Of a DNA stretch of 64,000 nucleotides, positions 32,576 to 62,960 are shown in pieces. Positions within the stretch are counted from its first letter, which is position 1. Every line of letters starts with the position of its first letter. The translations under genes and the position numbers were made by a program. The notes below the pieces were generated by a model. The model did not search any database. It was not told the DNA's origin and saw only the letters and a program-made list of their open reading frames with translations. Source of the stretch: Candidatus Omnitrophota bacterium (GTDB lineage Bacteria > Omnitrophota > Gorgyraeia > Duberdicusellales > 4484-171). The DNA is taken from contig PMCS01000030.1 of the NCBI GenBank assembly GCA_003154195.1, forward strand, positions 59,446 through 123,445, written 5' to 3'.

Positions 32576-32790
32576 TTGGAAGATGCAGACGATCGCTGAG
32601 GATACGTATATTTATAGTGATTTAACCTATAGGTTTATTATTATGCCAAGGGCTCAAAATATAAATTGGTCTTATTAATTAATTTTGGTTCTCCTAAAGT
32701 TACCATAAAAAGATTAATATATACTAAAGGCGCAGGATGATATTTTATCTGTGATCATCTGCTTCTTCTAATCAGTGATCATCCGTGACT
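32561..32790 (+). mobile_element. Internally deleted (MITE-like) copy of the TIR-bounded GxxExxY element
   Basis: gcagatgatcgctga...tatagtgatttaacctata is the 5' ~70 bp of the element. It then jumps to ttatgccaagggctcaaaatataaattggtcttatt...tatctgtgatcatctgcttcttctaatcagtgatcatccgtgac, the 3' ~150 bp plus right TIR. Both parts are ~90% identical to 37678-38147. Confidence 0.7.
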
Positions 32791-36095: not shown

Positions 36096-37034
36096 ATGTA
36101 TTTCTACGGACCGGTTCCTTCCCGCAGGCTCGGGTTTTCTTTAGGGGTCGATTTAATACCCAAAAAGGTATGTTCTTTCGATTGCGTCTATTGCCATGTC
36201 GCTCGGACTACCCAAAAAACCGCCGGACAATTTTCTTATGTTAAGTTACCGCAGTTTACGAAAGAACTTAAGGCGACCATAGCAAAGAAGCCCCAGCTTG
36301 ATTATATAACCATCTCCGGTTCCGGCGAGCCGACCTTGCACAAAAACCTCGATAAAATAATCGGCATCATCAAGCAAACAACCAAAAACAGATATCCGGT
36401 TTGCGTAATCACTAACTCTTCGCTTTTATACCGTAAGTCCGTGCGTCGAGCTTTGCGCCGCGCCGACTTGATTATTCCTTCGCTCGATGCCGCTACCCCG
36501 CGGGTTTTTGAAAAAATTAACCGGCCGCTTAAGGGGATAACCATCGATAAAATAATCAACGGCCTTATCCGGTTGAGAAAAGAATTCAAGGGTAAAATCT
36601 GGTTGGAAATAATGGTGGTGCGCGGCATTAACGATACACTTGACGAAGCGTTTCGGCTGCGAGAGGCTGTTGCTAAAATAAAACCCGATAAAGTCCAACT
36701 GAATATACCGGTGCGGCCGGCCTGGGCAGATATAGCCCTACCCGATAAAGAGCGCGTCCGGGAAATAGCGAAAATCATCGGCGGCAATATCGAAATTATC
36801 GCCCGATTTAACAAGAAACCGAGAAAGCAATCCGGCGGCGACGCCGCGAATGTAATCATCGAATTTTTGAAACGCCGTCCGGCAAACCTAAGCGATTTGG
36901 AAAAGACGCTGGGCATCAGCCGTCTTCGGTTGAACCGCTCTCTACGCGATCTAATATCGCGCGGGAAGATAAAAGAGAAAATGGCGCATGGCGAAAAATA
37001 TTTTATTTTTTGCGGCGCAAAAAATAAAATATGA
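36096..37034 (+). CDS. Radical SAM domain protein (small, non-B12)
   Basis: The N-terminal CSFDCVYCHV is a CX3CX2C motif 25 aa from the start. Confidence 0.65.
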   Translation: MYFYGPVPSRRLGFSLGVDLIPKKVCSFDCVYCHVARTTQKTAGQFSYVKLPQFTKELKATIAKKPQLDYITISGSGEPTLHKNLDKIIGIIKQTTKNRYPVCVITNSSLLYRKSVRRALRRADLIIPSLDAATPRVFEKINRPLKGITIDKIINGLIRLRKEFKGKIWLEIMVVRGINDTLDEAFRLREAVAKIKPDKVQLNIPVRPAWADIALPDKERVREIAKIIGGNIEIIARFNKKPRKQSGGDAANVIIEFLKRRPANLSDLEKTLGISRLRLNRSLRDLISRGKIKEKMAHGEKYFIFCGAKNKI

Positions 37035-37684: not shown

Positions 37685-38147
37685 TCACAGATGAGAAGAT
37701 GCAGATGATCGCTGATGATACGTATATTTATAGTGATTTAACCTATAAAATTATCGGGGCGGCTTACGATGTCCATAAGGAACTGGGTTCCGTCCATAAA
37801 GAAATTGTCTACCACAGAGCGTTGGCTATTGAATTCGGTAACAGGAACATCCCTTTTGTCGAAGAAAAGCCGATTGATGTAAAATTTAAAGAAAACAAAA
37901 TAGGAACATACAGGCCAGATTTTATTGTAGACGACAAAGTCGTGGTGGAGATAAAAGCCGTTCCTGCTATAGCCAAAGCAATGTATGATAAGGTTTATTA
38001 TTATGCCAAGGGCTCAAAATATAAATTGGTCTTATTGATTAATTTTGGTTCTCCTAAAGTTACTATAAAAAGATTAATATATACTAAGGATGCGGGATGA
38101 TATTTTATCTGCGATCATCAGCATCTTTTAATCAGCGATCATCTGCA
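37678..38147 (+). mobile_element. TIR-bounded mini-element carrying one GxxExxY-family (PD-(D/E)xK nuclease-like) gene
   Basis: Left end gcagatgatcacagatgagaagatgcagatgatcgctgatgatacg. Right end tatctgcgatcatcagcatcttttaatcagcgatcatctgcac. The reverse complement of the right end aligns to the left end, giving ~43-bp imperfect TIRs. The element sits exactly between the yggS stop and the MBL gene ATG. Confidence 0.65.
37681..38100 (+). CDS. GxxExxY-family protein (predicted PD-(D/E)xK nuclease fold)
   Basis: IIGAAYDVHKELGSVHKEIVYHRAL...PDFIVDDKVVVEIKAV. The E-x-K with preceding D matches PD-(D/E)xK. A homolog at 53759-54076 carries GCGFLEYVYQEAL. Confidence 0.7.
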   Translation: MITDEKMQMIADDTYIYSDLTYKIIGAAYDVHKELGSVHKEIVYHRALAIEFGNRNIPFVEEKPIDVKFKENKIGTYRPDFIVDDKVVVEIKAVPAIAKAMYDKVYYYAKGSKYKLVLLINFGSPKVTIKRLIYTKDAG

Positions 38148-38149
38148 CT

Positions 38150-38857
38150 ATGCGACTAAAAATTCTATTTGAAAAAGAAAAAATCGACGAAAGATTCTCC
38201 GGCGGATGGGGATTGTCTTATCTGGTGGGGGAGAATGTCCTTTTTGATACCGGCGAGAAGTTCGAATTTCTGGAAAACAACGCCCGGTTGATGAACGTTG
38301 ATTTAAACAAAATCAATAAAGTCGTGATTTCTCATACCCATTGGGACCATGTTTCTGGTTTGTGGGAGCTCTTAAAGCGTAACCGGGGGATTACGGTATA
38401 TGGCTGTCCGCGTTTCGAGGAAGATTTTAAGAATAAAGTGACCGCCGCTTGCAGCCGGTTTGTGGAAGTAAAAGAGATGGTGGAATTGGAAAAAGGGGTC
38501 TATGCTTCCGGCGAGATGATGGCTAATTATAAGGGTGAAGTAGTGGCGGAGCACGCTATGGCCCTCGATTCAGGGAACAATATCGCGATTCTTTGCGGTT
38601 GCTGTCATCCGGGAGTGCTGAACATGCTGCAGAAGATTACCGGTTTTTTCGGCCGGCATGTTGATATGCTCATCGGCGGTTTGCACCTGATGGATAAGGA
38701 GAAGAGATTTACCGAATATATTATCCAGGAAATGCCGGTTCGGGTCAAAAAAGCCGCGCCGGGGCATTGCACCGGCAGTGAAGCCGCCGCTCGCCTGAGA
38801 GCTATTTATAAGGAAAATTTCATCGAGCTGAAAGCGGGGATGGAGCTTGAGATATAA
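38150..38857 (+). CDS. MBL-fold metallo-hydrolase
   Basis: HTHWDHVSGL (HxHxDH zinc motif) and later H/D ligands. Confidence 0.6.
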   Translation: MRLKILFEKEKIDERFSGGWGLSYLVGENVLFDTGEKFEFLENNARLMNVDLNKINKVVISHTHWDHVSGLWELLKRNRGITVYGCPRFEEDFKNKVTAACSRFVEVKEMVELEKGVYASGEMMANYKGEVVAEHAMALDSGNNIAILCGCCHPGVLNMLQKITGFFGRHVDMLIGGLHLMDKEKRFTEYIIQEMPVRVKKAAPGHCTGSEAAARLRAIYKENFIELKAGMELEI

Positions 38858-40193: not shown

Positions 40194-43100
40194 ATGCTTA
40201 ACCTACTTAACCACAAAAAAGTCAACGGTTTAACTAAAGTCTTAATTTCTACCCTGGCGTTTTTATTTTTCTTTTCCAGCCTGGGTATCTCGCGTGCCTT
40301 GCCGCAAGCTGGGCCCGGCGCCATTATGGCGAGCCTGCCGGTTCCGGGGCAGATGGTAAATATTACCCCGCCGTTCACTCCGGTGTTGATTAAAGGCCTT
40401 AAGCTCGACGTCAATGACCCGTTTAAATTCAACTTTATTGTCGAGCCGGGCGACAGCCGATTGAAAGACGCTCAATTAAAAGAAGAAATCTCCGATTTAG
40501 TGCGCTACTTCTTAACCGCCTTAACCGTTCCCGAATCTGACCTTTGGGTCAACCTTTCGCCGTTTGAGAACAGCCGTGTTATCACCGATGAATTGTCGTC
40601 GACCGATTTAGGCCGCGATTTGTTGGCTTCCGATTACATTCTCAAGCAATTAGTTTCTTCCCTGACCTATCCGGAATCGCCTTTAGGCAAAAAATTCTGG
40701 GATAAAGTATACAAGCGCGCCGGCGAATTATACGGCACCACCAAAATCCCGGTCAATACGTTTAATAAAATCTGGATTATGCCCGAATCGGCTTCGATTT
40801 ACGAGAACGGCAACCAGGTGATTATCTCCGATATTAAACTCAAAGTGATGCTGGAAGCGGATTATCTGGCGATGAAGAATACCAAGGGGCAGGGGGCAGG
40901 AGTCAAGGGCCAAAGCGAAAATACAAAAAAGGATATCAATGATTTAAGCGGGCAGATCATGAAGGAAGTGATCCTGCCGGTCATCGAGCAGGAAGTCAAC
41001 CAGGGAAAGAATTTTGCCAAAGTGCGTCAGATCACCTATTCGATTATCCTGGCCAGCTGGTTTAAACTGAAACTCAAAGACAGCCTGGTGGCTAAAGCCT
41101 ATGCCAATAAAAAGACGATGAAGGGCGTCGATACCAGCGACCCGGCGTTACGCGAACGCATTTATCAGCAATATGTCTCCGCCTATAAAAAGGGCGTCTA
41201 TGACTATATCAAAAAAGAATTCGAAGGTAATTCTTCGCGCCAGGTAAGGCGCAGGTATTATTCCGGCGGGTATACCATCAGTAATGCTGTAGAGTTGGTC
41301 AGCGGCGGGGTGGAGGTCACCACCCCCCAGTTTGCTCAAGCCGCGGCTCGTAAAGAAACAGTAATCGCCACGGCTTTAGTAAACGAGGGGGGCGTCACCG
41401 CTTCGCCGGTTGGAATCATGTCGTCCCCGTTGGCTAGAGTCACTGAACTAAAAGGTAAGATAATTCCTTCTCTTGAAAGGGATCTTGCGGCAAAAATGGC
41501 TGTGCATCGAAAACAACAGGCGAATATCAAGGACGAACATCAGCGACAGGTGGGCATATATGCGAGAACTTGGGCTACGCAGGCACTTCTCAAATATGAC
41601 ACTGAAATCAGTAAGAGAGCCAACTACGATGGTGACAGGGTAGCCGCCGCTTGGGCAGATCTACAACAGGCTAAAGCTGCGTGGAATGTAGAAAAAGAAC
41701 TTGATCAACGTCGTTTGGAACTAGCGAGCCTAGAACTAGAAATAAGAATAAAAAAAAGAGGGTCTTCGGCGGTAGCCGCTTCGCCGGTAACACCTGTGGA
41801 GGATGGATTTACCTCGGCAATAGCCGGTTTTTACGCTATGGCGGGCCAAGCTAAACCTGATTGGCGAACGATGCGAGCTGAAGTTGAAGGAAAATATAAT
41901 ACGCTCAAGGCAGAATTAGATAGAGCCCACGAGGAAGCCGACAGACAATATAAGGAAAGGATGACTCAGAACAATGAATTACTTCAAGCATGGTCTGACT
42001 TGGAAGAGGCTGTAGGAAAAGTAGCGAAAGAATTAAGGCAAGTAGAAACAGAAATGGCAAATGTTGCTGGCCAGGAAGGTAGTCAAGATAAAGTATCTGC
42101 TTTGCGACAGCGATTAGATGAAATAAAGGCAAGATATTCATCGATTCTTGCTAAAAAAGACGAAGCTGATGCCCGTATGGTAGCAGATTTCAATGAAAGA
42201 GTGAACCCCTTAAGACTTTCCTTGGAGACTATCGAAATCAAACTCCTTGCTGCTGAATTAGAGTTTAGGATGGTTATGGCGGGATATCCTAACGTTGGAA
42301 TTATGAATGGTATTATCCAGGAATATGAGACAGGAGCAAGAACGCATTCGACTTTGGCAGACTATAGAGAGATGATTGGTCACGAATCGATTACTGAAGA
42401 GATGCTTAAACCTTTGGCGGAAGCGATAGAAAGAGCCAAGGCACGCGTTGCTGATCTTAAGGCTAAAGAAGGTAAGGCTTCGGATGCGGCTCAAGAAGCG
42501 CCGACCGCGCCGACCGCGCCGGCCGCGCCGGCCGCGCCGACCCACGAAGCTGAGTCAACGGCCAGAGCTTTAGAGACCCCGGAGGTAACGCCAACGCAAG
42601 TCACTATGCAGTCGACGGAAATGTTGGCTGCAGCGGTTAATGATTTGGCAGACCAACATCGGGTGCGCTCTGAAGCAATGGTAAGGGCGCAGGCAAAACG
42701 TGAGACGCTGAAAACAGAGCTTGAGGCGGCGAGGCAGGCGGCCGATTCAGCTCTCGGCCAATCAGACTATGATACGCTTCGAGAAGCCTGGGCGCAAAAA
42801 AGCAGAGAATGGGATGAATTTATCACGCAGACATTTAACCCTCAAGTTGATCCATATAATGCCGGTTTAGCCCGGTTGCAAGCGGCCAGGATAGCGGCTG
42901 ATGTGGTGGCGTATAGAGGCGAAGGCCGGAGCATCGGGGATACTGATGTTAAGATGTGGCAGGCCCTGGGCGATAAGATTAGGGCGACAATTGAGTACTT
43001 AGAAGATACGGGAGAACGGTTCGCGGAGCCGCACAATAATGCCCCGACGGTTGAGCAGCTCAAGAATCTTGACGCGGAATTGGCATTAGCTAAAAGTCAT

Positions 43101-46100
43101 CTTAGCGTGGCGTACTATGCGCAAGGGTTAACGGAAACGCCGGCTTTTTTAAACGAGCTTTCCCAGGCCAGCGCGGAAAATCAAGATAGAGCGATTAAAG
43201 AAATTGTTAAGATTGCCCAAGGTAAAGGAAAAGTCTTGGCGGAAATAATCAGGCTCATTAATAGAACATCCGGTCTGCCGGAAAACCTTCGGCCGGTTAC
43301 CACTAAGCTTCTTGCCGCGATACATAAAGAACCGGGTTCGACGAAGGATTTGCTCGGGCGTCCCAGGGCGCCTAAGATCCGGGCCGCCGTGATTGATGCG
43401 CTCGATAAAATTCCCGGAAGCGACAGTGATGCAGCGCTTGAGCTTATTGGGGTTGGGCCTGGGGGTGAAGCCGTGCCTGGGGGTGAAGCCGCGATGGATG
43501 TTTTAGCGACACGAAAACAGTTAGGGGGTAGAATCGGCAGTGGAGAGCCGGAAAGAGGGGATAGCGGTATGCGGAGACTTTTAGAAGAATTCCCCCCTGA
43601 TCCGGATAAGCCGACACCATCAGACTCGGCTAAGGACGCAGCGGCCAAGCTTGCCGCCGCGGCTAAAGCTGGTGACGCCAGTGCGGCGACAGCCGCGGTG
43701 CTGGATGCATCCATGGGAGTGGACCGCGTAGCTCAAGCCAGCAAGACCGGAACCGACTCGGAGCGTATTACCGCTCTTGATCTTCTTTTTTCGATTGCTA
43801 CTACCGGCCAGGGGTCGCGCCGCGCCCGCTGGGCGATTACTGATGCCGCGGTTAACGCCGATAGTTCAGCTGCCGTGCGGATTGCCGCGCTTAAATATCT
43901 TGGCGCGCTCAACAATCACGCCGCGCTTCCGGCGCTTAACCATGTAATTAACGATATCGCTGGTAGGTCTCAGGCGGATAGGGATAAAGCCGGCCTTGCT
44001 GCGGTCAGCGAGGCGGCGCGCCAGGCTATCAAAGATATCAATGAAACCAATGCCAAGCCCAATGCGCTTGTCAGATTAACCAACGCTTTTAAGGCAATTT
44101 ACTATAGGTTGATAACCAATAGCGCCCAAAGCGCGCCTGCGGGTGCATCTACGACTACGTCAACTGCCAAGGGCGGTGGTAATGTCGTCGGCGGGGGAAA
44201 TGACGATGCTGCCGCTAAAGCTCTTGCTCAAGCAAAAGAAGCCGCGGCTCAAGCCCTTACTGAAGCAAAGGCAAAAGTCGAACCCGTTACTGCTGATTTG
44301 AGAGATAAACAACATCAAGCCGAAATCGAAGCTACAATTGCGGCACGTACGCAAAGAGAGTTTGTGGAATTGGGTAAACAACGGGCCGCCAAAGAAAAAG
44401 AATTGGCCGATGCCCAGGCGGCAAAAACTGCCGCCGACCAGGCTGTTGCCACTCTTGAGGCGCCGCCGGTTAAAGTGCCGGGGAAAAGAGCGCCCTCGGC
44501 TGCTAAGAGGAAAAAAGACCTTGCCCAAGCCAGGAAAAATGCCGGGTACGCCACGGCTGAAGTCGAGAATCGTACGCGGGGATTGAATGATTTGGTATCG
44601 CTTGCGGTGAATCCGGCTGAAGCCAGGGCTGCAGCGGCTAAGACTGCGGCTGATGAGGCCGCGAAGCTTGCGGCAGAGGCCGAAACACAGGCAAAAGCGG
44701 CGCAAACCGCAGTTGACGAGGCGCAAGCTAAGGTGGAGCAATTGAATGCGCCGCCTAGCCAGTCCACCGGAACGGCGGCCGGCAATAAGCCGAATTTAGC
44801 TGTCGACGCCGCCAAGAAATTAGCCGATATCCCGCCGGATGAGCCTGTGTCGGTAGAGGAGAGTTTAGCTGAAGCCGCCGCCCGGATATTGGGCCACGGC
44901 GCTTCCGAAATAATCAATAGTGATCCGGAGGTAGCTGCCGTCCGGCTTTTAGATATTTTAAAAGACCCTGATCAATCTGCCGACCGCATCTCTGTTTTGA
45001 GATTGCTGGGGGAGATAGCCATGACTGAAATAATTGCTAAATATCGGCCGCAAGAAGCTGTGCCTGCGTCGGAAGGAGGGCCGGCCGTGTCGTCCGCGGT
45101 AAAAGTGATGAACGTCGAGTTGTCTTCTCATGTTGGGGCTATTTTGAATGCTATACTTGCTACTTTTAGGCAGGAAGGGGATGCCGGTATCCGTATCGCC
45201 GCGCTTGAGCAATTAGTCGAGTTAGGTTTATCTTTCCCCCCTGAAAGTGGGGGACGGGTTCCGATAATAAATGCAATCCAGTCAGTTGCCAAGAGCGGGA
45301 AAGGAGAAGATAAAGCAGTAATAAAAGCCGCTAAACAGGCTTTGATCGATATGGGGGTTCGTAGCAAATTGGGAAGGATAGGGCTACTTGCGGGGTTGGC
45401 GGTGGCGGTGGCTTTTGGCGGCTACGCGTTGCAACATGCCATGCAGGCTCCCGTCCCCGGCCTTGTTCCGGGCGTCGGCCATCTACCCGGAGGCCCCGAC
45501 GGAGGCCTCGATGTCGGACATCACGGCGCAAATCTGCCCCAGTTGATTATGCCTTCCCAAATGCCCCCGGATGATTATAAGTGGAGCCTGGAGCAGAACA
45601 GCGCGGGAAAATTGTTTTGGGTTGCCGTACCCGATTATTCTAAGCATCCCGATATTATGACCAGAGACCAAATTAATACACTTTATAATCCTCCGCCCGG
45701 TTTTTATCGGGACGGGAGTGATGCAGGCAGGTTGAATGCTTGGCTGGTGCCGATGTTTCCTATACCGGTACAGTCTACAGCGCCGGCCGGAACCGATACC
45801 GGTGTTCAAACTGCTACCGGCGTCATGGCCATCGATGCCGCAGTCCAGAAAGTCGCCGTTTCCGCGGCTCGTGAGGCGTTAGCCAATAGAGATACCGGCA
45901 AATCCGCGCTGGATTCCCAAGCGGTAACGCCCGACGCCGGAAAAAGCGACAAAACTGCCGTCGATGGCGGTACTACAGTAGATGTTCCCGGAGCGTATAC
46001 TACTACTCCGGTGGAAAAGGAAAAGATTCCCGCGACATCCCCTCCGGCTGATAATGGGAGCAATCCGACCGGAACAGGAGCAGCAGCAACCACAGGCGAT

Positions 46101-47315
46101 GCGGGAAAGACTGTGACTCAAGCTCCCGCGGCAACAGGCAACGCGAATGTTAAAAAACAAGCAGGAAAAAACGACGATAAAGTAATGAAAAAACTCCACG
46201 ATGAAGAAATGGCCAAACGAGCGAATGCGAAATTACTTTTGGAAACGGCCATCCATGACTATCTGTTGGATCATGGAATGCCCACGGATGATGGAGCAAT
46301 CCAGAAAATAAGGGCAGACAATAAGCTTGAGGGCGATCACAAAATCCCATTTCACAATCCGTACTATATTCGTATTAATGGAACATCAGTTAAGGTACCC
46401 GGAGCAGATTCATTACCTCTATCTCTGGCCACGAAAGCCCCGGCGGCGAAAGCTGCGAGACTTAGTTTTGACCAAGCGATAGAGGGGGATTTGGCTTCCC
46501 CCTCCGGCCCCACCCATGTTGATCGCGGCGTTCGTAAGGCTACTGAAAAGGTTAAAAATGATATAGCCAGCATCAATGGCTACAAGCGGACTCCTGACGG
46601 CCTTTTGACAGATGATGGTAAGCCGGTTCCGCCGGGGAAAAAGCTATTAATGGTACCGCCTTCACTGGGTGACCCTTATTATGAGTCAGCGCTTAAGGAT
46701 TTCCAGGCAAAGGCATACGCTTATCTGCAGCAACATCCTGACGCTTCGATGGACGAAGCGATAGATTATGTCGACCGTACCACCCCGCCTTATCAGGAGA
46801 CTAAGTGGGCATACGCTGGTTCAGAACAGGGGGGTAAAGAAGGACGTAGAGTTCCGCTTGGTAAGCCGGTAACTTTTAGGGATTTAGTAGAGCACAATGG
46901 TATTGTTTGGGATGGCCCGTCGGATAACAACGCCCCCTCCGGTACCGCGACTGGTGATAGCGGTACTCCCGGGGTTGGGCACGGTAACACGCCGGGTGAT
47001 GCGACCGGCATTGGTGGGGGAGTAAAGGCGAAGGTACTAGATTTTCTTCACGAGGCGGGGTTCGGCCGCCAGCTTCCGACAACGCAACAGGTTTTTACTG
47101 GACTTAAGGGAATGAGCAGCAGTTCGCCGGACACTAAAGGCGGTATCGATATGAACACCGCCAAGACGGCGATGAATATCAAAGGCGACGGGAAATTCGC
47201 TTTTGCTTCCTCGGCGCTTAAGGCCGACGGCCAGTCTTGGAAGGGGATTACGTTTACCATCGTGAAGGTAGAAAGGATCACTAACCCCGCGTTATTTTTC
47301 GCCGCGTCGCGATAG
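40194..47315 (+). CDS. Giant secreted/membrane protein 1 (2373 aa). It has a signal peptide, a conserved ~330-aa N-terminal domain of unknown function, coiled-coil and HEAT/PBS-lyase-like repeat regions, one internal TM helix, a Thr/Pro/Gly-rich region and a conserved ~55-aa C-terminal module.
   Basis: AGGAGG RBS 9 nt before the ATG at 40194. Signal peptide KVLISTLAFLFFFSSLGIS. The N-domain is ~80% identical to that of the 47582 gene. HEAT-like repeats include VRIAALKYLGALNNHAALPALNHV and IRIAALEQLVELG. The TM helix is RIGLLAGLAVAVAFGGYAL. The C-terminal module is IDMNTAKTAMNIKGDGKFAFASSALKADGQSWKGITFTIVKVERITNPALFFAASR. Confidence 0.8.
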   Translation: MLNLLNHKKVNGLTKVLISTLAFLFFFSSLGISRALPQAGPGAIMASLPVPGQMVNITPPFTPVLIKGLKLDVNDPFKFNFIVEPGDSRLKDAQLKEEISDLVRYFLTALTVPESDLWVNLSPFENSRVITDELSSTDLGRDLLASDYILKQLVSSLTYPESPLGKKFWDKVYKRAGELYGTTKIPVNTFNKIWIMPESASIYENGNQVIISDIKLKVMLEADYLAMKNTKGQGAGVKGQSENTKKDINDLSGQIMKEVILPVIEQEVNQGKNFAKVRQITYSIILASWFKLKLKDSLVAKAYANKKTMKGVDTSDPALRERIYQQYVSAYKKGVYDYIKKEFEGNSSRQVRRRYYSGGYTISNAVELVSGGVEVTTPQFAQAAARKETVIATALVNEGGVTASPVGIMSSPLARVTELKGKIIPSLERDLAAKMAVHRKQQANIKDEHQRQVGIYARTWATQALLKYDTEISKRANYDGDRVAAAWADLQQAKAAWNVEKELDQRRLELASLELEIRIKKRGSSAVAASPVTPVEDGFTSAIAGFYAMAGQAKPDWRTMRAEVEGKYNTLKAELDRAHEEADRQYKERMTQNNELLQAWSDLEEAVGKVAKELRQVETEMANVAGQEGSQDKVSALRQRLDEIKARYSSILAKKDEADARMVADFNERVNPLRLSLETIEIKLLAAELEFRMVMAGYPNVGIMNGIIQEYETGARTHSTLADYREMIGHESITEEMLKPLAEAIERAKARVADLKAKEGKASDAAQEAPTAPTAPAAPAAPTHEAESTARALETPEVTPTQVTMQSTEMLAAAVNDLADQHRVRSEAMVRAQAKRETLKTELEAARQAADSALGQSDYDTLREAWAQKSREWDEFITQTFNPQVDPYNAGLARLQAARIAADVVAYRGEGRSIGDTDVKMWQALGDKIRATIEYLEDTGERFAEPHNNAPTVEQLKNLDAELALAKSHLSVAYYAQGLTETPAFLNELSQASAENQDRAIKEIVKIAQGKGKVLAEIIRLINRTSGLPENLRPVTTKLLAAIHKEPGSTKDLLGRPRAPKIRAAVIDALDKIPGSDSDAALELIGVGPGGEAVPGGEAAMDVLATRKQLGGRIGSGEPERGDSGMRRLLEEFPPDPDKPTPSDSAKDAAAKLAAAAKAGDASAATAAVLDASMGVDRVAQASKTGTDSERITALDLLFSIATTGQGSRRARWAITDAAVNADSSAAVRIAALKYLGALNNHAALPALNHVINDIAGRSQADRDKAGLAAVSEAARQAIKDINETNAKPNALVRLTNAFKAIYYRLITNSAQSAPAGASTTTSTAKGGGNVVGGGNDDAAAKALAQAKEAAAQALTEAKAKVEPVTADLRDKQHQAEIEATIAARTQREFVELGKQRAAKEKELADAQAAKTAADQAVATLEAPPVKVPGKRAPSAAKRKKDLAQARKNAGYATAEVENRTRGLNDLVSLAVNPAEARAAAAKTAADEAAKLAAEAETQAKAAQTAVDEAQAKVEQLNAPPSQSTGTAAGNKPNLAVDAAKKLADIPPDEPVSVEESLAEAAARILGHGASEIINSDPEVAAVRLLDILKDPDQSADRISVLRLLGEIAMTEIIAKYRPQEAVPASEGGPAVSSAVKVMNVELSSHVGAILNAILATFRQEGDAGIRIAALEQLVELGLSFPPESGGRVPIINAIQSVAKSGKGEDKAVIKAAKQALIDMGVRSKLGRIGLLAGLAVAVAFGGYALQHAMQAPVPGLVPGVGHLPGGPDGGLDVGHHGANLPQLIMPSQMPPDDYKWSLEQNSAGKLFWVAVPDYSKHPDIMTRDQINTLYNPPPGFYRDGSDAGRLNAWLVPMFPIPVQSTAPAGTDTGVQTATGVMAIDAAVQKVAVSAAREALANRDTGKSALDSQAVTPDAGKSDKTAVDGGTTVDVPGAYTTTPVEKEKIPATSPPADNGSNPTGTGAAATTGDAGKTVTQAPAATGNANVKKQAGKNDDKVMKKLHDEEMAKRANAKLLLETAIHDYLLDHGMPTDDGAIQKIRADNKLEGDHKIPFHNPYYIRINGTSVKVPGADSLPLSLATKAPAAKAARLSFDQAIEGDLASPSGPTHVDRGVRKATEKVKNDIASINGYKRTPDGLLTDDGKPVPPGKKLLMVPPSLGDPYYESALKDFQAKAYAYLQQHPDASMDEAIDYVDRTTPPYQETKWAYAGSEQGGKEGRRVPLGKPVTFRDLVEHNGIVWDGPSDNNAPSGTATGDSGTPGVGHGNTPGDATGIGGGVKAKVLDFLHEAGFGRQLPTTQQVFTGLKGMSSSSPDTKGGIDMNTAKTAMNIKGDGKFAFASSALKADGQSWKGITFTIVKVERITNPALFFAASR
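42498..42542 (+). repeat. In-frame 9-bp tandem repeat (x5) encoding APTAPTAPAAPAAPT within giant gene 1
   Basis: gcgccgacc gcgccgacc gcgccggcc gcgccggcc gcgccgacc. Confidence 0.8.
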
Positions 47316-47344
47316 AAAGACCGTAAGGCCGTAGGACGTGGTCC

Positions 47345-47525
47345 GCCAATTCGTGATACGAATCGGCGAGACCTCGCCATCTACGGGATGGCGGGGACGT
47401 CTGCGGCAGCAGCCGCTGGGACGTGGGTGAAGAAAGTCCATAGTCGATAGATTGAAACTGAAAAACGGGAAATACGAGAAACGGAAAGGCAGAAAAAGCG
47501 AAAAAGAAGGAAAAATCTGTATCTT
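47345..47525 (+). repeat. Family-D repeat (copy Y) immediately downstream of giant gene 1
   Basis: See 39440-39625. Its 5' part also matches the reverse complement of 9462-9515. Confidence 0.65.
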
Positions 47526-47535
47526 TTTTACATTG

Positions 47536-47549
47536 CTATAGCAATATTT
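47536..47549 (+). promoter_or_regulatory. Perfect 14-bp palindrome ATTGCTATAGCAAT in the putative promoter of giant gene 2
   Basis: ttttacATTGCTATAGCAATatttttttt lies 33 bp upstream of the ATG at 47582. A GAAGGA RBS sits at 47565-47570. Confidence 0.4.
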
Positions 47550-47581
47550 TTTTTATACATTTTCGAAGGATATTCAAAACT

Positions 47582-50500
47582 ATGCTTACTTTTAATCCAA
47601 AAAAATCAAATGCCGGTAAAGTTTTTTCGTCTTTTATGGCGTTTGTTTTTTTCTTTACCAGCTTAGGCACGGGTAAGGCCTTTTCGGATAACGGGCAATT
47701 AAGCCTTGCGTCTCTGCCTTTACCGGGCCAGATGGTCAATCTCACTCCGGTGTTTACTCCCGCCCTGCTCAAAGGCCTGAAACTTGACGCGAACAATCCG
47801 TTAAGATTCAATTTCATCGTCGAACCGGGCGATACGAAATTCGGCGAAGCGAAACTAAAAGAAGAAGTCTCCGATATGGTCCGCTATTTCCTGGCCGCGC
47901 TGACCATACCCGAATCTGACCTCTGGGTAAACCTTTCTCCGTTCGAAGGCGGCAGGGTAATCACCGATGAATTGTCGTCAACCGATCTGGGCCGCGACAT
48001 GCTGGCTTCCGATTATTTATTGAAACAATTAGTCTCTTCCCTGACCTATCCCGAATCAGCCTTAGGCAAAAAATTCTGGGAAAAAGTGTACAGAAGAGCC
48101 AATGAAGTTTATGGGACGGCTAAGATACCGGTCAACACTTTTAACAAAATATGGATTATGCCGGAGTCGGCATCGATTTTTGAGAACGGGGATAAAGTGG
48201 TAATCTCCGATATCAAACTGAAGGTGATGCTGGAAGCTGATTATTTTGCTATGCAAAATAATCAGGCCAAAGACCAAAAAACTGGAAAACCGAAAAACGA
48301 AAAAACTTTTACCACGGGTAATCAATCTGACGGTAAAGCGGTTAATGATTTATCCGGGCAGATCATGAAAGAAATCATCCTGCCGGTCATCGAGCAGGAA
48401 GTAAACCACGGCCAGAGTTTTGCCAAATTGCGCCAGATCATCTACTCCGTCATTCTGGCCGGTTGGTTTAAATTAAAATTAAAAGACAGTATTGTCAACC
48501 AGACTTACAGCGATAAAAAGAAGATGAAGGGCGTAGATACTTCTGACCCGGCGTTAAAAGAAAAGATATATCAACAATACGTGCAGGCTTATAAGAAAGG
48601 CGTCTATGATTATATCAAGAAAGAATTCGAGGCTAATTCCCATAGACAAGTCCGGCGCCGTTATTTCTCCGGCGGCGTAGAGCTTCTCTACGGGAAGCTT
48701 GTCGGTGATACCCAGCGAGTTCCCCCTGAAGCGTTTGCCGGAAAATTAAGCAGTCCGCTCGAAGCCGAGGCGGCCACGGTTGAGTTAGCGCCGGCTTCGC
48801 TGCCTAATAGTTTCCTGGGCGAGGTGCCTCCGGGCTATGTCAGCCCATGGGTTGACCGGAAAGGTAAAGATGGCCCAATCGATCAGCATTTGCCTACATT
48901 GGCTCAATACGATAATGTCCTAATCGCTATAACGACGGGGCCTGAGGCCGTAGAGGAGATTGTCACGAGAGAAGGCCCGCTTGCGGCGCCCAATTTTGTC
49001 AGGGCGCTCGAGGATAATGCTATGGGAGAATTTAGGAAAGAAATTATTAACGTTCTTGGTAGAATAGGAGATGCGAGCGCAATTGGCAATATCGTCAGGT
49101 TCGGCATTGATTACATTGGTAGAAAAACCCCGGCTGGAGAAGTGCGCGCAGTGCATTTAGCCGCAATCGAGGCGATTAAGAATATAGGTATGCGCTATAT
49201 TTGGAATATTGATCATGCTTTTTGGATGCTTAGCCTTGCGGTGGAGGGAATAGGGGACGCGGAGCTTCACGCAAAAGCGATTGACGCTCTCAGGGAAATG
49301 GCGGCCTTGATGGTTAAGACTAACCCGATAGATGATGAAAAAGCCGTATACGCTTCCAGGCTCGCTTATTACAGGCAATTTTTCCAGAGGCTTCTGAGCA
49401 TGGCTAGGACTAAACCTAATAAAAGAGGTGTAGTCGATTATGGAGTTGTAGACAAGGATGTCCGTATCGTCGCTATTTCTGCTCTCGCGCCTGTAACTGC
49501 AGCCGCTAAAGATAATAGATTTGTTTCTGATCCCGAATATGATGGCTTTCTTTCGGGTGTTCGTTCGGAACTTACGGGTGTGGCTACTGATGAAAAAGAC
49601 AATCCGGAGGTGCGCGCCGCCGCAGTTCGTGCTCTTGGGGTGATGGCTGCTAATAAGCGGTTCCCGATCATGATTTATCATACACTTGAAGATATGTTTA
49701 CAAGAGACAGTCCGGATATGCCGGATATTGTTAGGGCTGCTCTTCGCGAGGTTCTTCCGGCGGTAAGCAAAGACGCCGGTACTGTCGCGGCTTCTCCGGT
49801 TACCGCCCTGAAGCCCGCGGCCGCGGATGAGGCCAGGCCGGGAGAGACAGGGCGAAAGCGGGGAGATGTTTTAAGAGCACTTAGGGCTTCTGAAAGAGAC
49901 CTGGCAACTTTAGAAGCCGCCTTAGAAGCTAAAAGTTGGGCATATCAATTATATACGGCGGGCTTTGATGAAGCCGCCGCAGGAGAGTTAACCGACGCTG
50001 TCAGGGTTAAGAAGCTTCCGCTTACAGGCAGGTATCGGCCCACTGATGATGGGGTCATGTTGATTGTTCATGCCGAGATTGGGGCGATTTCACGCACCGA
50101 AACGGAGCGTCTTGGTAGTTTAGAAAGACAAAGAGAAATCAGGGAGCTTGATGATAAGGTTAAAGCTAAAAGAGCGCAGGTTATTGAGCTCGGATGGGCG
50201 GCGCGTGAGCTTGAGGCAGCTCAGCAGGAGCGCCATGCTGTCGCCCTGAGAAGATTAGAAGAATTAAAGGCTAAATTTCAAAAGGCGGTGTCTGGTTTTA
50301 CAAGCGCTTTAGAAGAAGCTCAAGGGAATGGCCCAGAGGCTGTTGCTGCCGCCAGGGGTGATCTTGATAAGTTGTTGGGAGAAATCCAACTCGCCGGCGA
50401 CGCGATTACGCAAGCGTTGGCTCGTTATAGAGAAGAGGGGATCGATCTTGGCGATGAGGCTCTGGTTGCCGGGACGCGTACTATCGGGGGAAAACCGGCA

Positions 50501-52084
50501 GAGGATACAATCTTGGAAGTGCAAACTATCATCGCTCGGTTGAGAGTAGATATGAGGGAATTATCCGATGCCCACAATCAGGCAGTGCAAGAAACCATCG
50601 AGCGATTAAGAGGGGATACAAGGGAGTTAGCTTTAGTATCGCTCGGGGAGTTTCTGTCCGACCGCGATACGGGACTTATAAGGTCGGGGGCTTCAAAGAA
50701 TTCCAGCGTCGGGCGAGGTAATTGGTTATGGAATTTGTTGAGGAGCAGGTTTACATACGCGGTTCTGATAGGAGGCGTGTTGGGTGGCCTTGCCGCGTTT
50801 CCTGTAGCCAGGTCTACTAATGCGGTCAAGCTCGATGTTTCTCTTAAGATTAAAGGAGGATTGACGGAGGCCGTGGCGCCGGCGTCGAAGCCGGAGCCAG
50901 GGTACGTAGGCTTTTTTCAGCTTCCAGAGCAGCCTAGCCCGTGGACGAGGACGATAGTAGTAAAAGCAAAGAAAGGCGATACTGTAGATGGACTATTAGG
51001 TAAGTATAACCCGGAATGGCCTGAACTTTCTCATGAAATGAGGATGGGCGGGCGAGAAGCTTTACGTGATTTTAATCCAGGAGTAGGGCCGGCATATCTT
51101 ATAATAGAAGGCAAGCGTTATAGAATACCTGCATATGTCAGTTCCGCGGTAGCCGAAGCGGCACAGGCGCGCGATAGAGATGGTTTGCAGGGGGAACTTA
51201 AAAGGGTTCAGGCAGAGCTTGAGCTTGCCTTACTGAAGCAGCGCGGCCTTAGAGGGGAAGCTGTCAAAACAAATCAGAGGCATGTCGCGGCGCTTGAGCG
51301 GAGGAGGGAAGCTATTGAGGCATCGTTAGTGGAGATAACGCTGGATGAGGCATTTAAGGGATTGCTTGATTTAGAACAATACGAGTCTAACTTAGCTAAA
51401 GGAAACGAGCAAGTCGGGGTGTCTTCAAAAGACCTCGCCGGTTCATTACCGGATTTAGGTAAGCAATATGATATCTTTGTCAGATGGCTTGTGTCTGAGT
51501 ACGATAGGATAGGGGGGGTAAAGATATTTCCAATACCAGCTTCAAAGGTGGAGCACTTAACTGCTATACTCAGCAGTCTTAATGATGGGCTGGAATCTGC
51601 CCAAGTATGGCAGAAAGAGATCTCTGGAATTTTGTCAAGATACGAGAGATTGCTCGGCGAGCCGCTTTTTACAGTAGATTATGAATTAGACAGATTACGG
51701 CCGGTTGTGGAATCAGCGCCAAAAACCAATGAACTTTATACTAAATTGATTGCGGATATTAATGAGTTGATAGCAAGGGCCAGCAGGGATCTTGCAGTAG
51801 CGAGAGAAGAAGCAAGGGCCGCGTCGCATCATCAAACAGTAACCGGTAGAGTTGTTGAGAAGCGTGCCAGCGCGAGTCCTGTCGGCGCGAGTTCTAACGC
51901 ACCCGTCGGCGGTATTGATTTAAACACTGCGAAAACAGCGATAAAGATCAAAGGCGACGGCAATTTCGCTTTTGCTTCCTCGGCGCTTAAGGCCGATGCG
52001 TCGGGGTTATTGGGATATACGTTTACCATCGTGAAACTGGAAAAGATCGCTGATCCCACCGCGTTCTTCGCCTCCGCCAAATAA
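47582..52084 (+). CDS. Giant secreted/membrane protein 2 (1500 aa), paralog of 40194-47315. It has a signal peptide, the conserved N-domain, HEAT-like repeats, coiled coil, an internal TM helix, a LysM-like segment and the conserved C-terminal module.
   Basis: Signal peptide FSSFMAFVFFFTSLGTG. N-domain SLPLPGQMVNLTP...YFSGG. HEAT-like repeats include PEVRAAAVRALGVMAANK. TM helix FTYAVLIGGVLGGLAAFPV. LysM-like KKGDTVDGLLGKY...AYLIIEGKRYRIP. C-terminal module IDLNTAKTAIKIKGDGNFAFASSALKADASGLLGYTFTIVKLEKIADPTAFFASAK. Confidence 0.8.
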   Translation: MLTFNPKKSNAGKVFSSFMAFVFFFTSLGTGKAFSDNGQLSLASLPLPGQMVNLTPVFTPALLKGLKLDANNPLRFNFIVEPGDTKFGEAKLKEEVSDMVRYFLAALTIPESDLWVNLSPFEGGRVITDELSSTDLGRDMLASDYLLKQLVSSLTYPESALGKKFWEKVYRRANEVYGTAKIPVNTFNKIWIMPESASIFENGDKVVISDIKLKVMLEADYFAMQNNQAKDQKTGKPKNEKTFTTGNQSDGKAVNDLSGQIMKEIILPVIEQEVNHGQSFAKLRQIIYSVILAGWFKLKLKDSIVNQTYSDKKKMKGVDTSDPALKEKIYQQYVQAYKKGVYDYIKKEFEANSHRQVRRRYFSGGVELLYGKLVGDTQRVPPEAFAGKLSSPLEAEAATVELAPASLPNSFLGEVPPGYVSPWVDRKGKDGPIDQHLPTLAQYDNVLIAITTGPEAVEEIVTREGPLAAPNFVRALEDNAMGEFRKEIINVLGRIGDASAIGNIVRFGIDYIGRKTPAGEVRAVHLAAIEAIKNIGMRYIWNIDHAFWMLSLAVEGIGDAELHAKAIDALREMAALMVKTNPIDDEKAVYASRLAYYRQFFQRLLSMARTKPNKRGVVDYGVVDKDVRIVAISALAPVTAAAKDNRFVSDPEYDGFLSGVRSELTGVATDEKDNPEVRAAAVRALGVMAANKRFPIMIYHTLEDMFTRDSPDMPDIVRAALREVLPAVSKDAGTVAASPVTALKPAAADEARPGETGRKRGDVLRALRASERDLATLEAALEAKSWAYQLYTAGFDEAAAGELTDAVRVKKLPLTGRYRPTDDGVMLIVHAEIGAISRTETERLGSLERQREIRELDDKVKAKRAQVIELGWAARELEAAQQERHAVALRRLEELKAKFQKAVSGFTSALEEAQGNGPEAVAAARGDLDKLLGEIQLAGDAITQALARYREEGIDLGDEALVAGTRTIGGKPAEDTILEVQTIIARLRVDMRELSDAHNQAVQETIERLRGDTRELALVSLGEFLSDRDTGLIRSGASKNSSVGRGNWLWNLLRSRFTYAVLIGGVLGGLAAFPVARSTNAVKLDVSLKIKGGLTEAVAPASKPEPGYVGFFQLPEQPSPWTRTIVVKAKKGDTVDGLLGKYNPEWPELSHEMRMGGREALRDFNPGVGPAYLIIEGKRYRIPAYVSSAVAEAAQARDRDGLQGELKRVQAELELALLKQRGLRGEAVKTNQRHVAALERRREAIEASLVEITLDEAFKGLLDLEQYESNLAKGNEQVGVSSKDLAGSLPDLGKQYDIFVRWLVSEYDRIGGVKIFPIPASKVEHLTAILSSLNDGLESAQVWQKEISGILSRYERLLGEPLFTVDYELDRLRPVVESAPKTNELYTKLIADINELIARASRDLAVAREEARAASHHQTVTGRVVEKRASASPVGASSNAPVGGIDLNTAKTAIKIKGDGNFAFASSALKADASGLLGYTFTIVKLEKIADPTAFFASAK

Positions 52085-52127: not shown

Positions 52128-52185
52128 AGAATACCAATCTTATTCTGGTTTTTTCAATCTGATTAATCTGTGGACAGTATTTTTT
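52128..52185. repeat. Repeat family H (copy 2)
   Basis: ttctggttttttcaatctgattaatctGTGGACAGTATTTTTTTTGGTT resembles 28775-28835. Confidence 0.4.
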
Positions 52186-53521
52186 TTGGTTTTATTTTAA
52201 TCCTTTTTTCTTCATTCTCTCCCTCAAATCTTCTATTCAGTTCCCGCAAATAATTTTTTATCTCCCAAAATTCCCGTAGTCTGTTTTCGCTGAACGCCCC
52301 GAATACCGAATTGTTCTGTAAGAGCGGTTCGCTGAATTTATCGCGATAGGCTTCGAACATTCGCGTGCCGGGAGTGGGCGAAAATTCGGCAAAGGAAGCT
52401 TTAGCGCCCAGGCGATGGAGGAAATCTACGTCGGTTTTCAGGGTTTCCAGATTTTGTCCCGGATAACCCAGAAGCAGATAGGCGCTGAATTCTCCGGGCT
52501 CAAACCCGCCTTTTTTTAACAGTTCAGCGCCGTGGATAACATCCTGGCGGTTGACTTTATCGCCCCATTGTTTTTCTAAATCAGGGTCAAGGGTTTCCAA
52601 CCCGAAATGGGGATTGATAAAACCGGTTGCTTTAAGCAGGGCGGCTAGTTCCTCGTCTAAATAACGCAGGTGCAGGGCATTGGGGGTGTGGAAGCGCAGG
52701 CCAAGATTCAAGGCGGCGATCTCTCTTAAAAAGTTTTTCGCGTATTCCGGCTCGCAAAGGAAAGCATCATCATACAGGACGAAGTCTTTTATGTTTTTCC
52801 CGGCGTATTTTTTTATGAACTCGATTATTTTTCCCGGCGCCAGCCGGAAAAAATAGGGGGATAACTTTTTTACGGCGCAATAACTGCAGTCAAAGGGGCA
52901 GCCCCAGGAGGTACGAAAAACCGCGTAATCCAGCCGGGGGTAAAAGTTTTCGTAATCAGGCAGGGCCGCGTATAATTCGCCATAGTCAACTTTAATCCCC
53001 AGCAGTTTAAAAAAATCATCCAATTGCCCATTGGCAAAAATGTAATCGGCGGGGATATTTTTTTTGGCGTGTTCATAGCATAGTGTCGCGTAGGTACCGC
53101 CTACGATTATCGGAGTTTCAGGAAAATGCTTTTTTAGTATTTTTATCGCTTCGATTATTCCCGGATACCAGTAGGTCATCGAAGAAGTTATCAGGATGTA
53201 GTCGAGGTTTTTATTAAAAAAAAGGTGTCTGTCCCCTTTATTAGAGGGAAGTTTTGCTTCGAATTCATCGGGGGTAAGGCCGTAGCGTTTGTAATAGCGG
53301 GGGATATTGGCGAAAATCTCAGGTTTTTTGATGATTTCCGAATGGTATTTCCCCCGGCCGAAATCGGCGTACGTTTCTTTTTTTTCCAGGCAGTCGAGAT
53401 AATGGATATCCGCGCCTTGGCTTTTAAGGTATTCCAGGATCACCAGGAACCCGTAGGGTTTCAGCCAGAAATCATAAGCGGCGAAATCGTAAATCCAGGG
53501 GTTTATGGCCAGAACGTGCAT
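52163..53521 (-). CDS. Cobalamin-binding radical SAM enzyme (class B)
   Basis: N-terminal B12-binding-like domain (VLAINPW...LVILEYLKSQGADIHYLD). Cluster motif GCPFDCSYCAV (CX3CX2C). Confidence 0.75.
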   Translation of the reverse strand: MHVLAINPWIYDFAAYDFWLKPYGFLVILEYLKSQGADIHYLDCLEKKETYADFGRGKYHSEIIKKPEIFANIPRYYKRYGLTPDEFEAKLPSNKGDRHLFFNKNLDYILITSSMTYWYPGIIEAIKILKKHFPETPIIVGGTYATLCYEHAKKNIPADYIFANGQLDDFFKLLGIKVDYGELYAALPDYENFYPRLDYAVFRTSWGCPFDCSYCAVKKLSPYFFRLAPGKIIEFIKKYAGKNIKDFVLYDDAFLCEPEYAKNFLREIAALNLGLRFHTPNALHLRYLDEELAALLKATGFINPHFGLETLDPDLEKQWGDKVNRQDVIHGAELLKKGGFEPGEFSAYLLLGYPGQNLETLKTDVDFLHRLGAKASFAEFSPTPGTRMFEAYRDKFSEPLLQNNSVFGAFSENRLREFWEIKNYLRELNRRFEGENEEKRIKIKPKKILSTD

Positions 53522-53758: not shown

Positions 53759-54076
53759 CTATAAGATTCTTCTTTTTATTTCTAAACTTTCGGTACCAAA
53801 ATTCAGCAATAGCCCTACTTTATTTTTAGTAGCTTTCAAATAATTTATCAACTGCGCTTGGTCGTTATTGGTTAAACCGGAGGCGGCCTTTATCTCTACG
53901 ATTACGCAATCTTCAACAAAAAAGTCAGAGCTGTATTTTTTTGGTATAAGTAAGTCTTTATACCATATATCCAATTCTTTCTGCGGTATAAAAGGTATCT
54001 TGCGTAGTTTAAACTCGTAAGATAAAGCTTCCTGGTAAACGTATTCCAGAAAACCGCACCCTAAAATTTTATGCAC
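53759..54076 (-). pseudogene. N-terminally truncated GxxExxY-family gene (second copy; degenerate, possibly inactive)
   Basis: GCGFLEYVYQEALSYEF matches the GxxExxY motif. The upstream in-frame sequence still encodes SDITEKAIGAAIEVH, homologous to the N-terminus of the 37681 protein, but it has no start codon and is closed by a stop. Confidence 0.5.
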
Positions 54077-61935: not shown

Positions 61936-62008
61936 GCCGACGTAGCTCAGTTGGTAGAGCAGTGGTTTTGTAAACCACAGGCCGGGGGTTCGAGTCCCTT
62001 CGTCGGCT
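61936..62008 (+). tRNA. tRNA-Thr (anticodon TGT)
   Basis: Cloverleaf read by hand: acceptor GCCGACG, D arm GCTCAGTTGGTAGAGC, anticodon arm GTGGT-TTTGTAA-ACCAC, T arm with TTCGAGT, 3' CGTCGGC. Confidence 0.85.
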
Positions 62009-62753: not shown

Positions 62754-62960
62754 TCCTGAGCCAAGCCCTTGACGTTATCTGCGTTAAGGGAAGGTGCAGA
62801 GACTAGACTGAAAAGTCGTAGGCCTTTCAGCAGGCCGAAGCGCCCGCCGCCTAAGGTTAAAAAAGCTATGGCGATGAGATAGTCCAAGCCTCGAGGTAAC
62901 TTGAGGGCACTTGAAATCTGTTGCGCTTGCGCTTCGAAGGTTCGAATCCTTCCCTGTCCA
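62647..62960 (+). tRNA. tRNA-Tyr (anticodon GTA) split by a 231-nt group I intron in the anticodon loop. Exon 1 is 62647-62682 and exon 2 is 62914-62960.
   Basis: Exon 1 is GGACAGG-TA-CCCAAGTGGTCAACGGG-G-ACAGA-CTGT. Exon 2 is AAA-TCTGT-tgcgcttgcgc-TTCGAAGGTTCGAATCCTTC-CCTGTCC-A. The joined loop is CTGTAAA, as in bacterial tRNA-Tyr. The acceptor stem GGACAGG/CCTGTCC is perfect. The long variable arm and T arm resemble E. coli tyrT. Confidence 0.75.
62683..62913 (+). ncRNA. Group I (IC3-like) self-splicing intron
   Basis: The 5' exon ends in U and the intron ends in G. P1 pairs cugu with gcag and has a U.G wobble at the splice site. The P2 hairpin is cattctg-ttgaaagg-cagaatg. The R-like element gcAGAGACTAGa and the S-like element gatgAGATAGTCC together form P7 (GACUA/UAGUC). 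Confidence 0.7.

Follow-up and report, generated by a model that had tools for sequence, protein, structure and literature searches.

Two adjacent cysteine-free proteins of Candidatus Omnitrophota as members of a large, putatively exported modular protein family

Described systems and the window pair

In this study we analysed two adjacent genes, ORF1 and ORF2 (open reading frames, ORFs), in a 64,000-nucleotide stretch of contig PMCS01000030.1 from a Candidatus Omnitrophota bacterium; this whole stretch is called the window, and all coordinates refer to it. Their products share an N-terminal domain (N-domain) and a short C-terminal module (C-module), while the middles are unrelated. Judging from the protein sequences, we lean towards the view that the two genes arose by tandem duplication, have since diverged, and belong to a very large, unnamed family of modular, exported proteins specific to Omnitrophota.

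Among the described systems, TpsA proteins of two-partner secretion (TPS; FHA, HMW1, CdiA) and autotransporter passengers are similar in that a Sec signal peptide is followed by a conserved N-terminal domain of ~250-330 amino acids (aa), and that a very long, variable, cysteine-poor polypeptide occurs as many paralogues with swapped distal parts. However, the window pair gave no Pfam match to TPS/haemagglutination-activity (Haemagg_act) or autotransporter domains at E<=1, the family N-domain is predicted to be alpha/beta while the TPS domain is a beta-helix, and neither a TpsB-like gene nor any conserved neighbour adjoins the family members. TpsA proteins also have no counterpart of the conserved module at the extreme C-terminus of the family, whose cargo consists of metabolic enzymes. 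Cargo of the type IX secretion system (T9SS), with its C-terminal domain (CTD), likewise combines an N-terminal Sec signal with a short conserved C-terminal domain on unrelated cargo, and one genome encodes tens of such paralogues, with the machinery located elsewhere, but the C-module of our family (GGIDLN..PVIINITP..LLG) has no Por_Secre_tail, TIGR04183 or PF18962 match at E<=1, the T9SS is a Bacteroidota-type system and its cargo has no shared N-domain.

The SLH proteins of Bacillus anthracis and the CWB2 proteins of Clostridioides difficile are also cysteine-poor and exported, and one module of ~170-300 aa is common to paralogues with diverse domains; unlike them, the window pair has no SLH or CWB2 match and a second conserved module at the other end, the cargo of the Omnitrophota family is of cytoplasmic type, and Omnitrophota are diderm-type PVC bacteria. 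MARTX and polymorphic toxins have conserved terminal regions around exchangeable effector domains that act in the cytoplasm of another cell, with modules swapped by recombination. In comparison with MARTX, no RTX repeats (no Pfam match) and no cysteine protease domain (CPD) are present, a Sec signal peptide takes the place of type I secretion, and the conserved arms of the Omnitrophota family are far smaller; the same lack of an RTX match and the same Sec signal peptide separate the pair from RTX adhesins and other type I substrates. In comparison with polymorphic toxins, the C-terminus is conserved and there is no immunity gene, the gene downstream of ORF2 being that of a B12-binding radical S-adenosylmethionine (SAM) protein on the opposite strand.

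The same phylum encodes giant and long proteins (10.1101/2023.11.21.568195; 10.64898/2026.06.07.730766), which also have a signal peptide and/or transmembrane (TM) segments, and in which HEAT repeats, sugar-metabolism, kinase and methyltransferase domains occur in one exported-looking polypeptide. The localisation paradox that this creates has already been discussed in both papers, and the N-terminal regions of the giants "generally lack identifiable domains" (West-Roberts 2023, bioRxiv 10.1101/2023.11.21.568195). These papers concern proteins of at least 10-30 thousand aa (kaa), and the giants of the Archaeovorin and Dockerin types reach at least 30,000 aa and carry SecA-like, glycosyl-hydrolase/transferase or dockerin/TSP3 domains, whereas the window proteins measure 1.5-2.4 kaa and contain none of these as Pfam domains. 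The passages searched in both papers mention neither a bracket of N-domain and C-module nor an exclusion of cysteine, and on these passages the family appears to be undescribed so far.

The two shared modules, the family and its cargo

ORF1 (40194..47315, 2373 aa) and ORF2 (47582..52084, 1500 aa) stand in tandem on the + strand, as do all features given in this section for the pair, with a gap of 266 bp; an alternative upstream ATG at 40140 would extend ORF1 to 2391 aa, and other assemblies annotate 2373 aa. Each protein starts with a predicted Sec signal peptide, at 40194..40298 in ORF1 (aa 1-35; K-rich n-region, hydrophobic core, predicted cleavage between SRA and LPQ) and at 47582..47680 in ORF2 (aa 1-33; predicted cleavage between GKA and FS). 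The N-domain core follows at 40332..41270 in ORF1 (aa 47-359, SLPVPGQMVN..RRRYYSGG) and at 47711..48676 in ORF2 (aa 44-365). The variable middle, or cargo, covers 41271..47138 in ORF1 (Ala/Glu-rich coiled coil, sub-threshold HEAT-like repeats, Thr/Ala/Pro linkers) and 48677..51907 in ORF2 (sub-threshold HEAT-like repeats, coiled coil). As the first-pass annotation of the sequence had described, the signal-peptide-like N-termini are accompanied by one strongly hydrophobic internal segment per protein, at 45378..45434 in ORF1 (aa 1729-1747, Kyte-Doolittle 1.76) and 50750..50806 in ORF2 (aa 1057-1075, Kyte-Doolittle 1.81). Both proteins close with the C-module, a GGIDxN module at 47139..47312 in ORF1 (aa 2316-2373) and a GGIDLN module at 51908..52081 in ORF2 (aa 1443-1500).

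Comparison of the two proteins by BLASTP aligned only their ends, with 70% identity over 377 aa in the N-terminal regions (E 2e-168) and 63% identity over the last 68 aa (E 3e-20), and no significant alignment beyond them, so the central regions are indeed largely unrelated, as had been stated at first pass. The annotated figure of ~80% identity for the N-domain also stands (242/312 positions, or 78%, over the strict core SLP.PGQMVN..RRRY[YF]SGG), while the C-module of 58 aa, said to be near-identical, is truly shared but was overstated in its similarity (43/66, 65%). With hidden Markov models (HMMs) of the two modules, the N-domain is matched at E ~1e-165, starting at residue 7 of ORF2 and residue 16 of the 2391-aa form of ORF1, and the C-modules at E 5e-23 and 2e-21, leaving tails of 1 and 0 residues. 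The C-modules of the window represent a divergent subtype (...G[YI]TFTIVK.E.I..P..FFA) without the Pro-rich PVIINITP motif. The pair thus shows all three features by which the family is recognised, i.e., the N-domain, the C-module and a near-absence of cysteine.

Scans of both window proteins with Pfam, NCBIfam and PADLOC gave nothing above cut-off. The HEAT/PBS-lyase-like repeats noted at first pass appear as matches below the Pfam gathering cut-offs (HEAT_2 in ORF2, 22.5 bits against 27.7; HEAT_PBS in ORF1, 12.3 bits against 20.9), and relatives of the pair carry strong HEAT cargo (E 7e-26 and 9e-35); a LysM-like segment proposed for ORF2 is not supported, as LysM (PF01476) gave no match even at E<=1. 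The middles matched neither PDB sequences (phmmer) nor any of 355 fetched proteins and all locus ORFs (BLASTP), and a homologue search for the orphan region in the middle of ORF1 (aa 1770-2300) found none.

The N-domain, ~330 aa long and placed directly behind the signal peptide, opens with LNLP.PG and contains the motifs WVNLSP.E .. GRDLL..DY.LKQ .. NK.WI .. EK.VN.G..FA.LRQ .. YFSGG. Neither module has a Pfam or NCBIfam match, and the N-domain sequence profile matched no PDB sequence. When ORF2 aa 36-400 were modelled with AlphaFold2 from a 114-sequence alignment, a confident model was obtained (predicted local distance difference test, pLDDT, 83.6; predicted template modelling score, pTM, 0.81; 211 residues with pLDDT>=90), in which three beta-hairpins lie against about eight helices in an alpha/beta arrangement. 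Foldseek found no structural relative of this model among all PDB chains (best E 0.7) or in BFVD (best E 0.37), and by comparison with these two collections the N-domain looks like a new fold; the earlier remark that it belongs to no recognised family is therefore borne out in Pfam, NCBIfam, PDB and BFVD. Because the 114 aligned sequences share 12 polar residues without exception (N82, E87, T99, D109, Y110, K113, K154, D185, E238, R249, Q250 and Y298, numbered by position in the query segment), the alignment suggests a defined binding or catalytic site in the N-domain, and not a mere spacer.

The C-module measures ~60 aa and has a hydrophobic, Pro-rich end, with the consensus GGIDLNP..L.LQIKRDG.GVPLP...QQP...M.I.GF.PVIINITPV.NLP.LLG followed by a short acidic tail. 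An invariant Gly-Gly lies at both module borders, in the YFSGG that closes the N-domain and in the GGIDLN that opens the C-module. Giant proteins of Omnitrophota are reported to carry C39 (double-glycine) peptidase domains, and it is conceivable that double-glycine cleavage at these two borders releases the cargo.

A word-indexed search with the N-domain of ORF2 returned 648 proteins, all without a name, at most ~51% identical and nearly all from Candidatus Omnitrophota metagenome-assembled genomes (MAGs); match lengths in this search appear to be capped at ~1.75 times the length of the query and do not reflect true protein sizes. The exhaustive HMMER search, with the 114-sequence N-domain profile, gave at least 8,413 cluster representatives (50% identity), 6,849 of them at E<=1e-30, and a family confined to two members, as considered at first pass, is thereby replaced by a phylum-wide one in which tandem arrays are common. 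Among the matches listed, the N-domain begins at residue ~1-20 in all 150, and the proteins measure 420-5,312 aa. Scanning one genome per species confirmed at least 579 N-domain loci, all in Omnitrophota MAGs, some of which are labelled "uncultured Planctomycetales".

From 79 fetched loci, in which ORFs were called and for which HMMs of both modules were built, 100 ORFs with the N-domain were obtained. Other genes bearing both modules are abundant: 60 ORFs, i.e., most of the complete N-domain ORFs, end in the C-module 0-48 residues before the stop, and the C-module is also terminal in 107/136 additional representatives, the remaining ones of which may be fragments. Complete N-domain ORFs without it are few and include apparent split genes in loci L002 and L020. 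Complete members range from 533 aa (a nearly empty frame) to 5,312 aa, and their middles from 100 to more than 4,500 aa. Tandem pairs are frequent and one triple occurs (L003, L014, L023, L025, L031, L032, L058, L066, L070, L077, L079), and the N-domains of tandem neighbours are ~64% identical (72% in the window pair) against a median of 51.5% between loci. Many public homologues lie on short contigs and are recorded as "partial", or extend past the contig end; N-domain and C-module repeats may break short-read Omnitrophota assemblies and so leave partial genes.

A Pfam census of 77 full-length members revealed what the middles carry. PGK occurs in 2 members (E 2.7e-107), the second copy in L003 holding a full PGK (profile positions 3-379 of 379); PGI is present in members P0089 and P0326 (a full PGI in the latter, E 7.8e-195), and member P0329 (908 aa) consists of a signal peptide, the N-domain, a hexokinase (403-808) and the C-module. 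Besides these, the enzymes comprise GTP-PEPCK, enolase, glutamate and alanine dehydrogenases, PPDK, UDP-glucose pyrophosphorylase, ROK kinase, aldose epimerase, peptidase M3, cytidine deaminase, PP2C and methyltransferases, while the non-enzyme cargo includes DnaJ, receiver domains, HEAT/ARM repeats and ankyrin repeats. No adhesin-type fold was found above the threshold used in these 77 members, and the first-pass suggestion of adhesin- or S-layer-like proteins fits poorly, as the relatives carry cytoplasm-type enzymes and repeat scaffolds instead. In L032:9881-14569 (+), an enolase cargo has kept 4 cysteines and is preceded by a strong hydrophobic helix (aa 829, Kyte-Doolittle 2.05); an Enolase_N stretch is placed after Enolase_C by Pfam, which suggests a rearranged or duplicated enolase, and this protein is possibly an exception whose cargo remains cytoplasmic.

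The turnover of the middles was compared in 15,753 pairs among 178 full-length members. The median C-module identity rises with N-domain identity, from 33% at 40-50% and 51% at 60-70% to 61% at 70-80% and 92% above 90%, while middles with at least 100 alignable residues are found in only 2/43 pairs at 70-80% N-domain identity and in ~1% of pairs below 70%. For example, the first copies in L003 and L014 (867 and 2184 aa) have N-domains 81% and C-ends 62% identical, and unrelated middles. Because ends that are 60-80% identical enclose unrelated middles, the middle has been replaced many times within a conserved frame, and the layout of conserved ends around a variable middle truly characterises the family over evolutionary time.

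Export signals and competing explanations

A signal-peptide heuristic anchored on the LNLP.PG motif was applied to 193 members and was passed by 180 of them, which show a basic n-region, a strong hydrophobic core and a small-x-small site; typically, cleavage would fall between [FY]AQ and [ST], 3-8 residues ahead of the N-domain. This pattern of a cleaved Sec signal would place the N-domain outside the cytoplasm. A prepilin (class III) signal was rejected since there is no motif of the FTLIE type with cleavage after a preceding G, a lipoprotein since there is no lipobox cysteine, and a PEP-CTERM/GlyGly-CTERM sorting signal since the tail is acidic, not basic, and the hydrophobic stretch Pro-rich.

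The second line of evidence is the cysteine content. Exclusion of cysteine is a signature of proteins that cross the envelope unfolded or that are extracellular without disulfide machinery, e.g., autotransporter passengers, TpsA, RTX and S-layer proteins and the exported proteins of some Gram-positives. In the family, cysteine makes up 0.07% of the middles (216,316 residues), 0.09% of the C-modules and 0.18% of the N-domain segments, against 1.23% in non-family ORFs at the same loci, 0.89% in non-family ORFs of at least 800 aa and 0.74% in other signal-peptide-like ORFs, which is a depletion of ~18-fold relative to neighbouring genes. Cysteine is entirely absent from 115/178 middles and from embedded PGK (414 aa), hexokinase (406 aa) and PGI (492 aa), and some of the residual cysteine of the family lies in the signal peptide (e.g., position 21 in the second copy of L003 and position 16 in P0329). 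The window pair contains 0 cysteines in 3,873 residues (0 in either protein), against a median of 13 per 1,000 in the other ORFs of the window. Export of the window proteins, which had been assumed at first pass, is supported by the canonical signal peptides of the family and by this near-absence of cysteine, as far as primary structure can indicate it.

On balance, we somewhat favour the interpretation that these are Sec-exported modular proteins in which the two end modules serve as export or attachment handles for exchangeable cargo. The signal peptide would be cleaved, and the entire polypeptide would exit the cytoplasm and have to stay disulfide-free; the N-domain and the C-module would be constant handles for an export or attachment machinery encoded elsewhere, and/or for anchoring in the envelope; and the middle would be exchangeable cargo, which in the window pair may be coiled-coil and HEAT-like scaffolding. 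The least secure, speculative step is that the cargo perhaps acts in a host or prey cell and not in the open medium.

Several observations weigh against this interpretation. No export or attachment machinery is encoded beside the members, and when the ORFs of the 79 loci were clustered, the groups obtained were generic ones (histidine kinases, ABC-F, GT4, B12-binding radical SAM) and included no conserved partner gene. Enzymes that depend on ATP or GTP, and DnaJ, are ill-suited to the periplasm or the open medium, and the cargo taken alone argues for a cytoplasmic location. A further strongly hydrophobic segment is present in 14/60 complete members, both window proteins included, and could stop transfer and leave the C-terminal part in the cytoplasm; the sole enzyme cargo that retains cysteine, the enolase of L032, sits behind such a segment. 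Coiled-coil and low-complexity sequence is inherently cysteine-poor, yet the enzyme domains are cysteine-free too. Finally, the full-length AlphaFold model of a 602-aa member (pLDDT 65) is too weak to show the placement of the C-module.

A bolder form of the export interpretation, which we hold only tentatively and consider less than probable, is that the N-domain and the GGIDLN module together form the signal for an undescribed, Omnitrophota-specific export or delivery route, by which disulfide-free, cytoplasm-type proteins (whole glycolytic enzymes, kinases, DnaJ, ankyrin/HEAT scaffolds) would pass from these ultra-small cells into attached host or prey, and that the family would be the main effector repertoire of the phylum. 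Because most of the cargo needs ATP, GTP, SAM or Hsp70, it may act inside attached host or prey cells, in their cytoplasm. Such action would fit the parasitic or predatory lifestyle proposed for Omnitrophota (PMC10066038), as well as the predator RNA reported inside prey cells (PMC13153191).

A self-assembling coat or S-layer-like matrix seems unlikely. Here the N-domain would bind the C-module of another molecule head-to-tail, in cohesin/dockerin style, and build an extracellular "velamen", with the middles as spacers and displayed activities, possibly glycosylated by the products of the adjacent island. The tight co-variation of N-domain and C-module identities in the 15,753 pairs would agree with this, although co-inheritance explains it too, and so would the many paralogues per genome and the cysteine-free, Ala/Thr-rich composition, which is typical of S-layer proteins. 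The glycan-biosynthesis island noted at first pass (sugar transferase, Wzy-like, RmlA-like, dehydratase, GT2, GT4, flippase) is real and also speaks for it; it lies upstream in the window, with ~4.4 kb of unrelated genes (YggS-like, PD-(D/E)XK, metallo-beta-lactamase-fold) before ORF1. However, the link is not a family trait, glycosyltransferase genes adjoining only 4/79 family loci. Neither SLH nor another known anchoring domain was found with Pfam and NCBIfam, and ATP-requiring enzyme cargo is hard to square with a purely structural coat.

It also seems unlikely that the proteins are cytoplasmic scaffolds tethered to the inner membrane by the N-terminal hydrophobic segment or an internal helix. 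The cytoplasm-type cargo (PGK, hexokinase, PEPCK, PPDK, DnaJ, receiver domains, methyltransferases) and the internal hydrophobic helices of some members speak for it, and the same reading is retained for TM-only long proteins in bioRxiv 10.64898/2026.06.07.730766. However, the N-terminal charge pattern and the small-x-small site followed by Q would place the N-domain outside, 46/60 members have no internal hydrophobic segment that could hold the rest inside, and cysteine is strongly depleted relative to neighbouring genes.

The DNA of the two genes is 73% identical over 966 bp at the 5' ends and 81% identical over 152 bp at the 3' ends. The perfect 32-bp block pointed out at first pass is confirmed inside the C-module (47196..47227 in ORF1, where it encodes FAFASSALKAD, and 51965..51996 in ORF2, both +), the next longest exact shared blocks being 26, 20 and 20 bp, and no conversion tract between ORF1 and ORF2 was found beyond this single run. 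Third codon positions in the 5' homology agree at 54%. Because identical codons are used at identical residues of the N-domain in 58% of cases against 39% expected from codon usage (67% against 37% in the C-module), the codons indicate an old duplication kept by purifying selection. Four other assemblies contain the locus at 99.995-100% identity (the window matches contig PMEA01000083.1 from GCA_003154645.1, as well as scaffolds from assemblies named WOOD18), and the 90%-cluster members of ORF1 and ORF2 that were compared are all identical fragments or alternative start calls.

Efficient homologous recombination needs far more exact homology than blocks of <=26 bp in 73%-identical DNA, so the 5' ends are not similar enough for the exchange that had been supposed at first pass. 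That the pair forms recombination cassettes, whose conserved 5' and 3' DNA lets tandem genes swap middles and thus varies a surface antigen, is highly improbable: conserved ends with unrelated middles, the 32-bp block in the 3' module and the frequent replacement of middles across the family on evolutionary time scales would suit it, but the 5' homology is too interrupted, synonymous sites are mostly diverged, and the same two genes recur in all these assemblies and cluster members with no cassette exchange seen. Of the recombination-driven layout proposed at first pass, the conserved ends and variable middle therefore hold family-wide on evolutionary time scales, while active exchange between the two copies is not supported.

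Surroundings of the pair and meaning for Omnitrophota

Radical SAM genes are unusually many in the window, in and around the glycan island and flanking ORF1 and ORF2. There are four B12-binding ones (6921-8396, 21014-22459 and 32785-34302, +; 52163-53521, -) and a plain one at 36096-37034 (+); B12-binding radical SAM genes also accompany family members at 4 or more further loci. A segment of ~164 bp at the 3' end of a PD-(D/E)XK (PDDEXK_3) gene, 37991-38152, is repeated with 91% identity (BLASTN) at 32631-32793, just upstream of the B12-binding radical SAM gene at 32785, and a second PDDEXK_3 ORF lies at 53759-54076 (-).

Near the end of the window, between tRNA-Thr(UGU) (61936-62008) and tRNA-Gly(UCC) (63183-63256), there is an apparent tRNA-Tyr(GUA) at 62593-62960 (+), the anticodon loop of which is interrupted by a group I intron (Rfam RF00028, 86.8 bits). 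It has a long variable arm and complementary acceptor halves, GTGGACAGG (from 62644) and CCTGTCCAC (to 62960); the exon boundaries were read by eye, ARAGORN having given no call for this tRNA. Another member of the Omnitrophota is reported to have a group I intron in its 23S rRNA gene (PMC13153191). An ORF of 234 aa (62049-62753, +), which begins just past tRNA-Thr and extends into the first part of the group I intron match, could be intron- or tRNA-associated (e.g., a homing endonuclease) or spurious.

Omnitrophota are widespread, uncultured and ultra-small bacteria that are thought to be parasitic or predatory, and their long proteins with cytoplasm-type enzymes behind signal peptides are an acknowledged puzzle. 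That one apparently new-fold domain and one C-terminal module tag thousands of nearly cysteine-free proteins gives a handle on this localisation puzzle. For annotation, the N-domain and the GGIDLN module provide two new domain families, and the destination of these proteins, as well as what carries them there, become testable questions.

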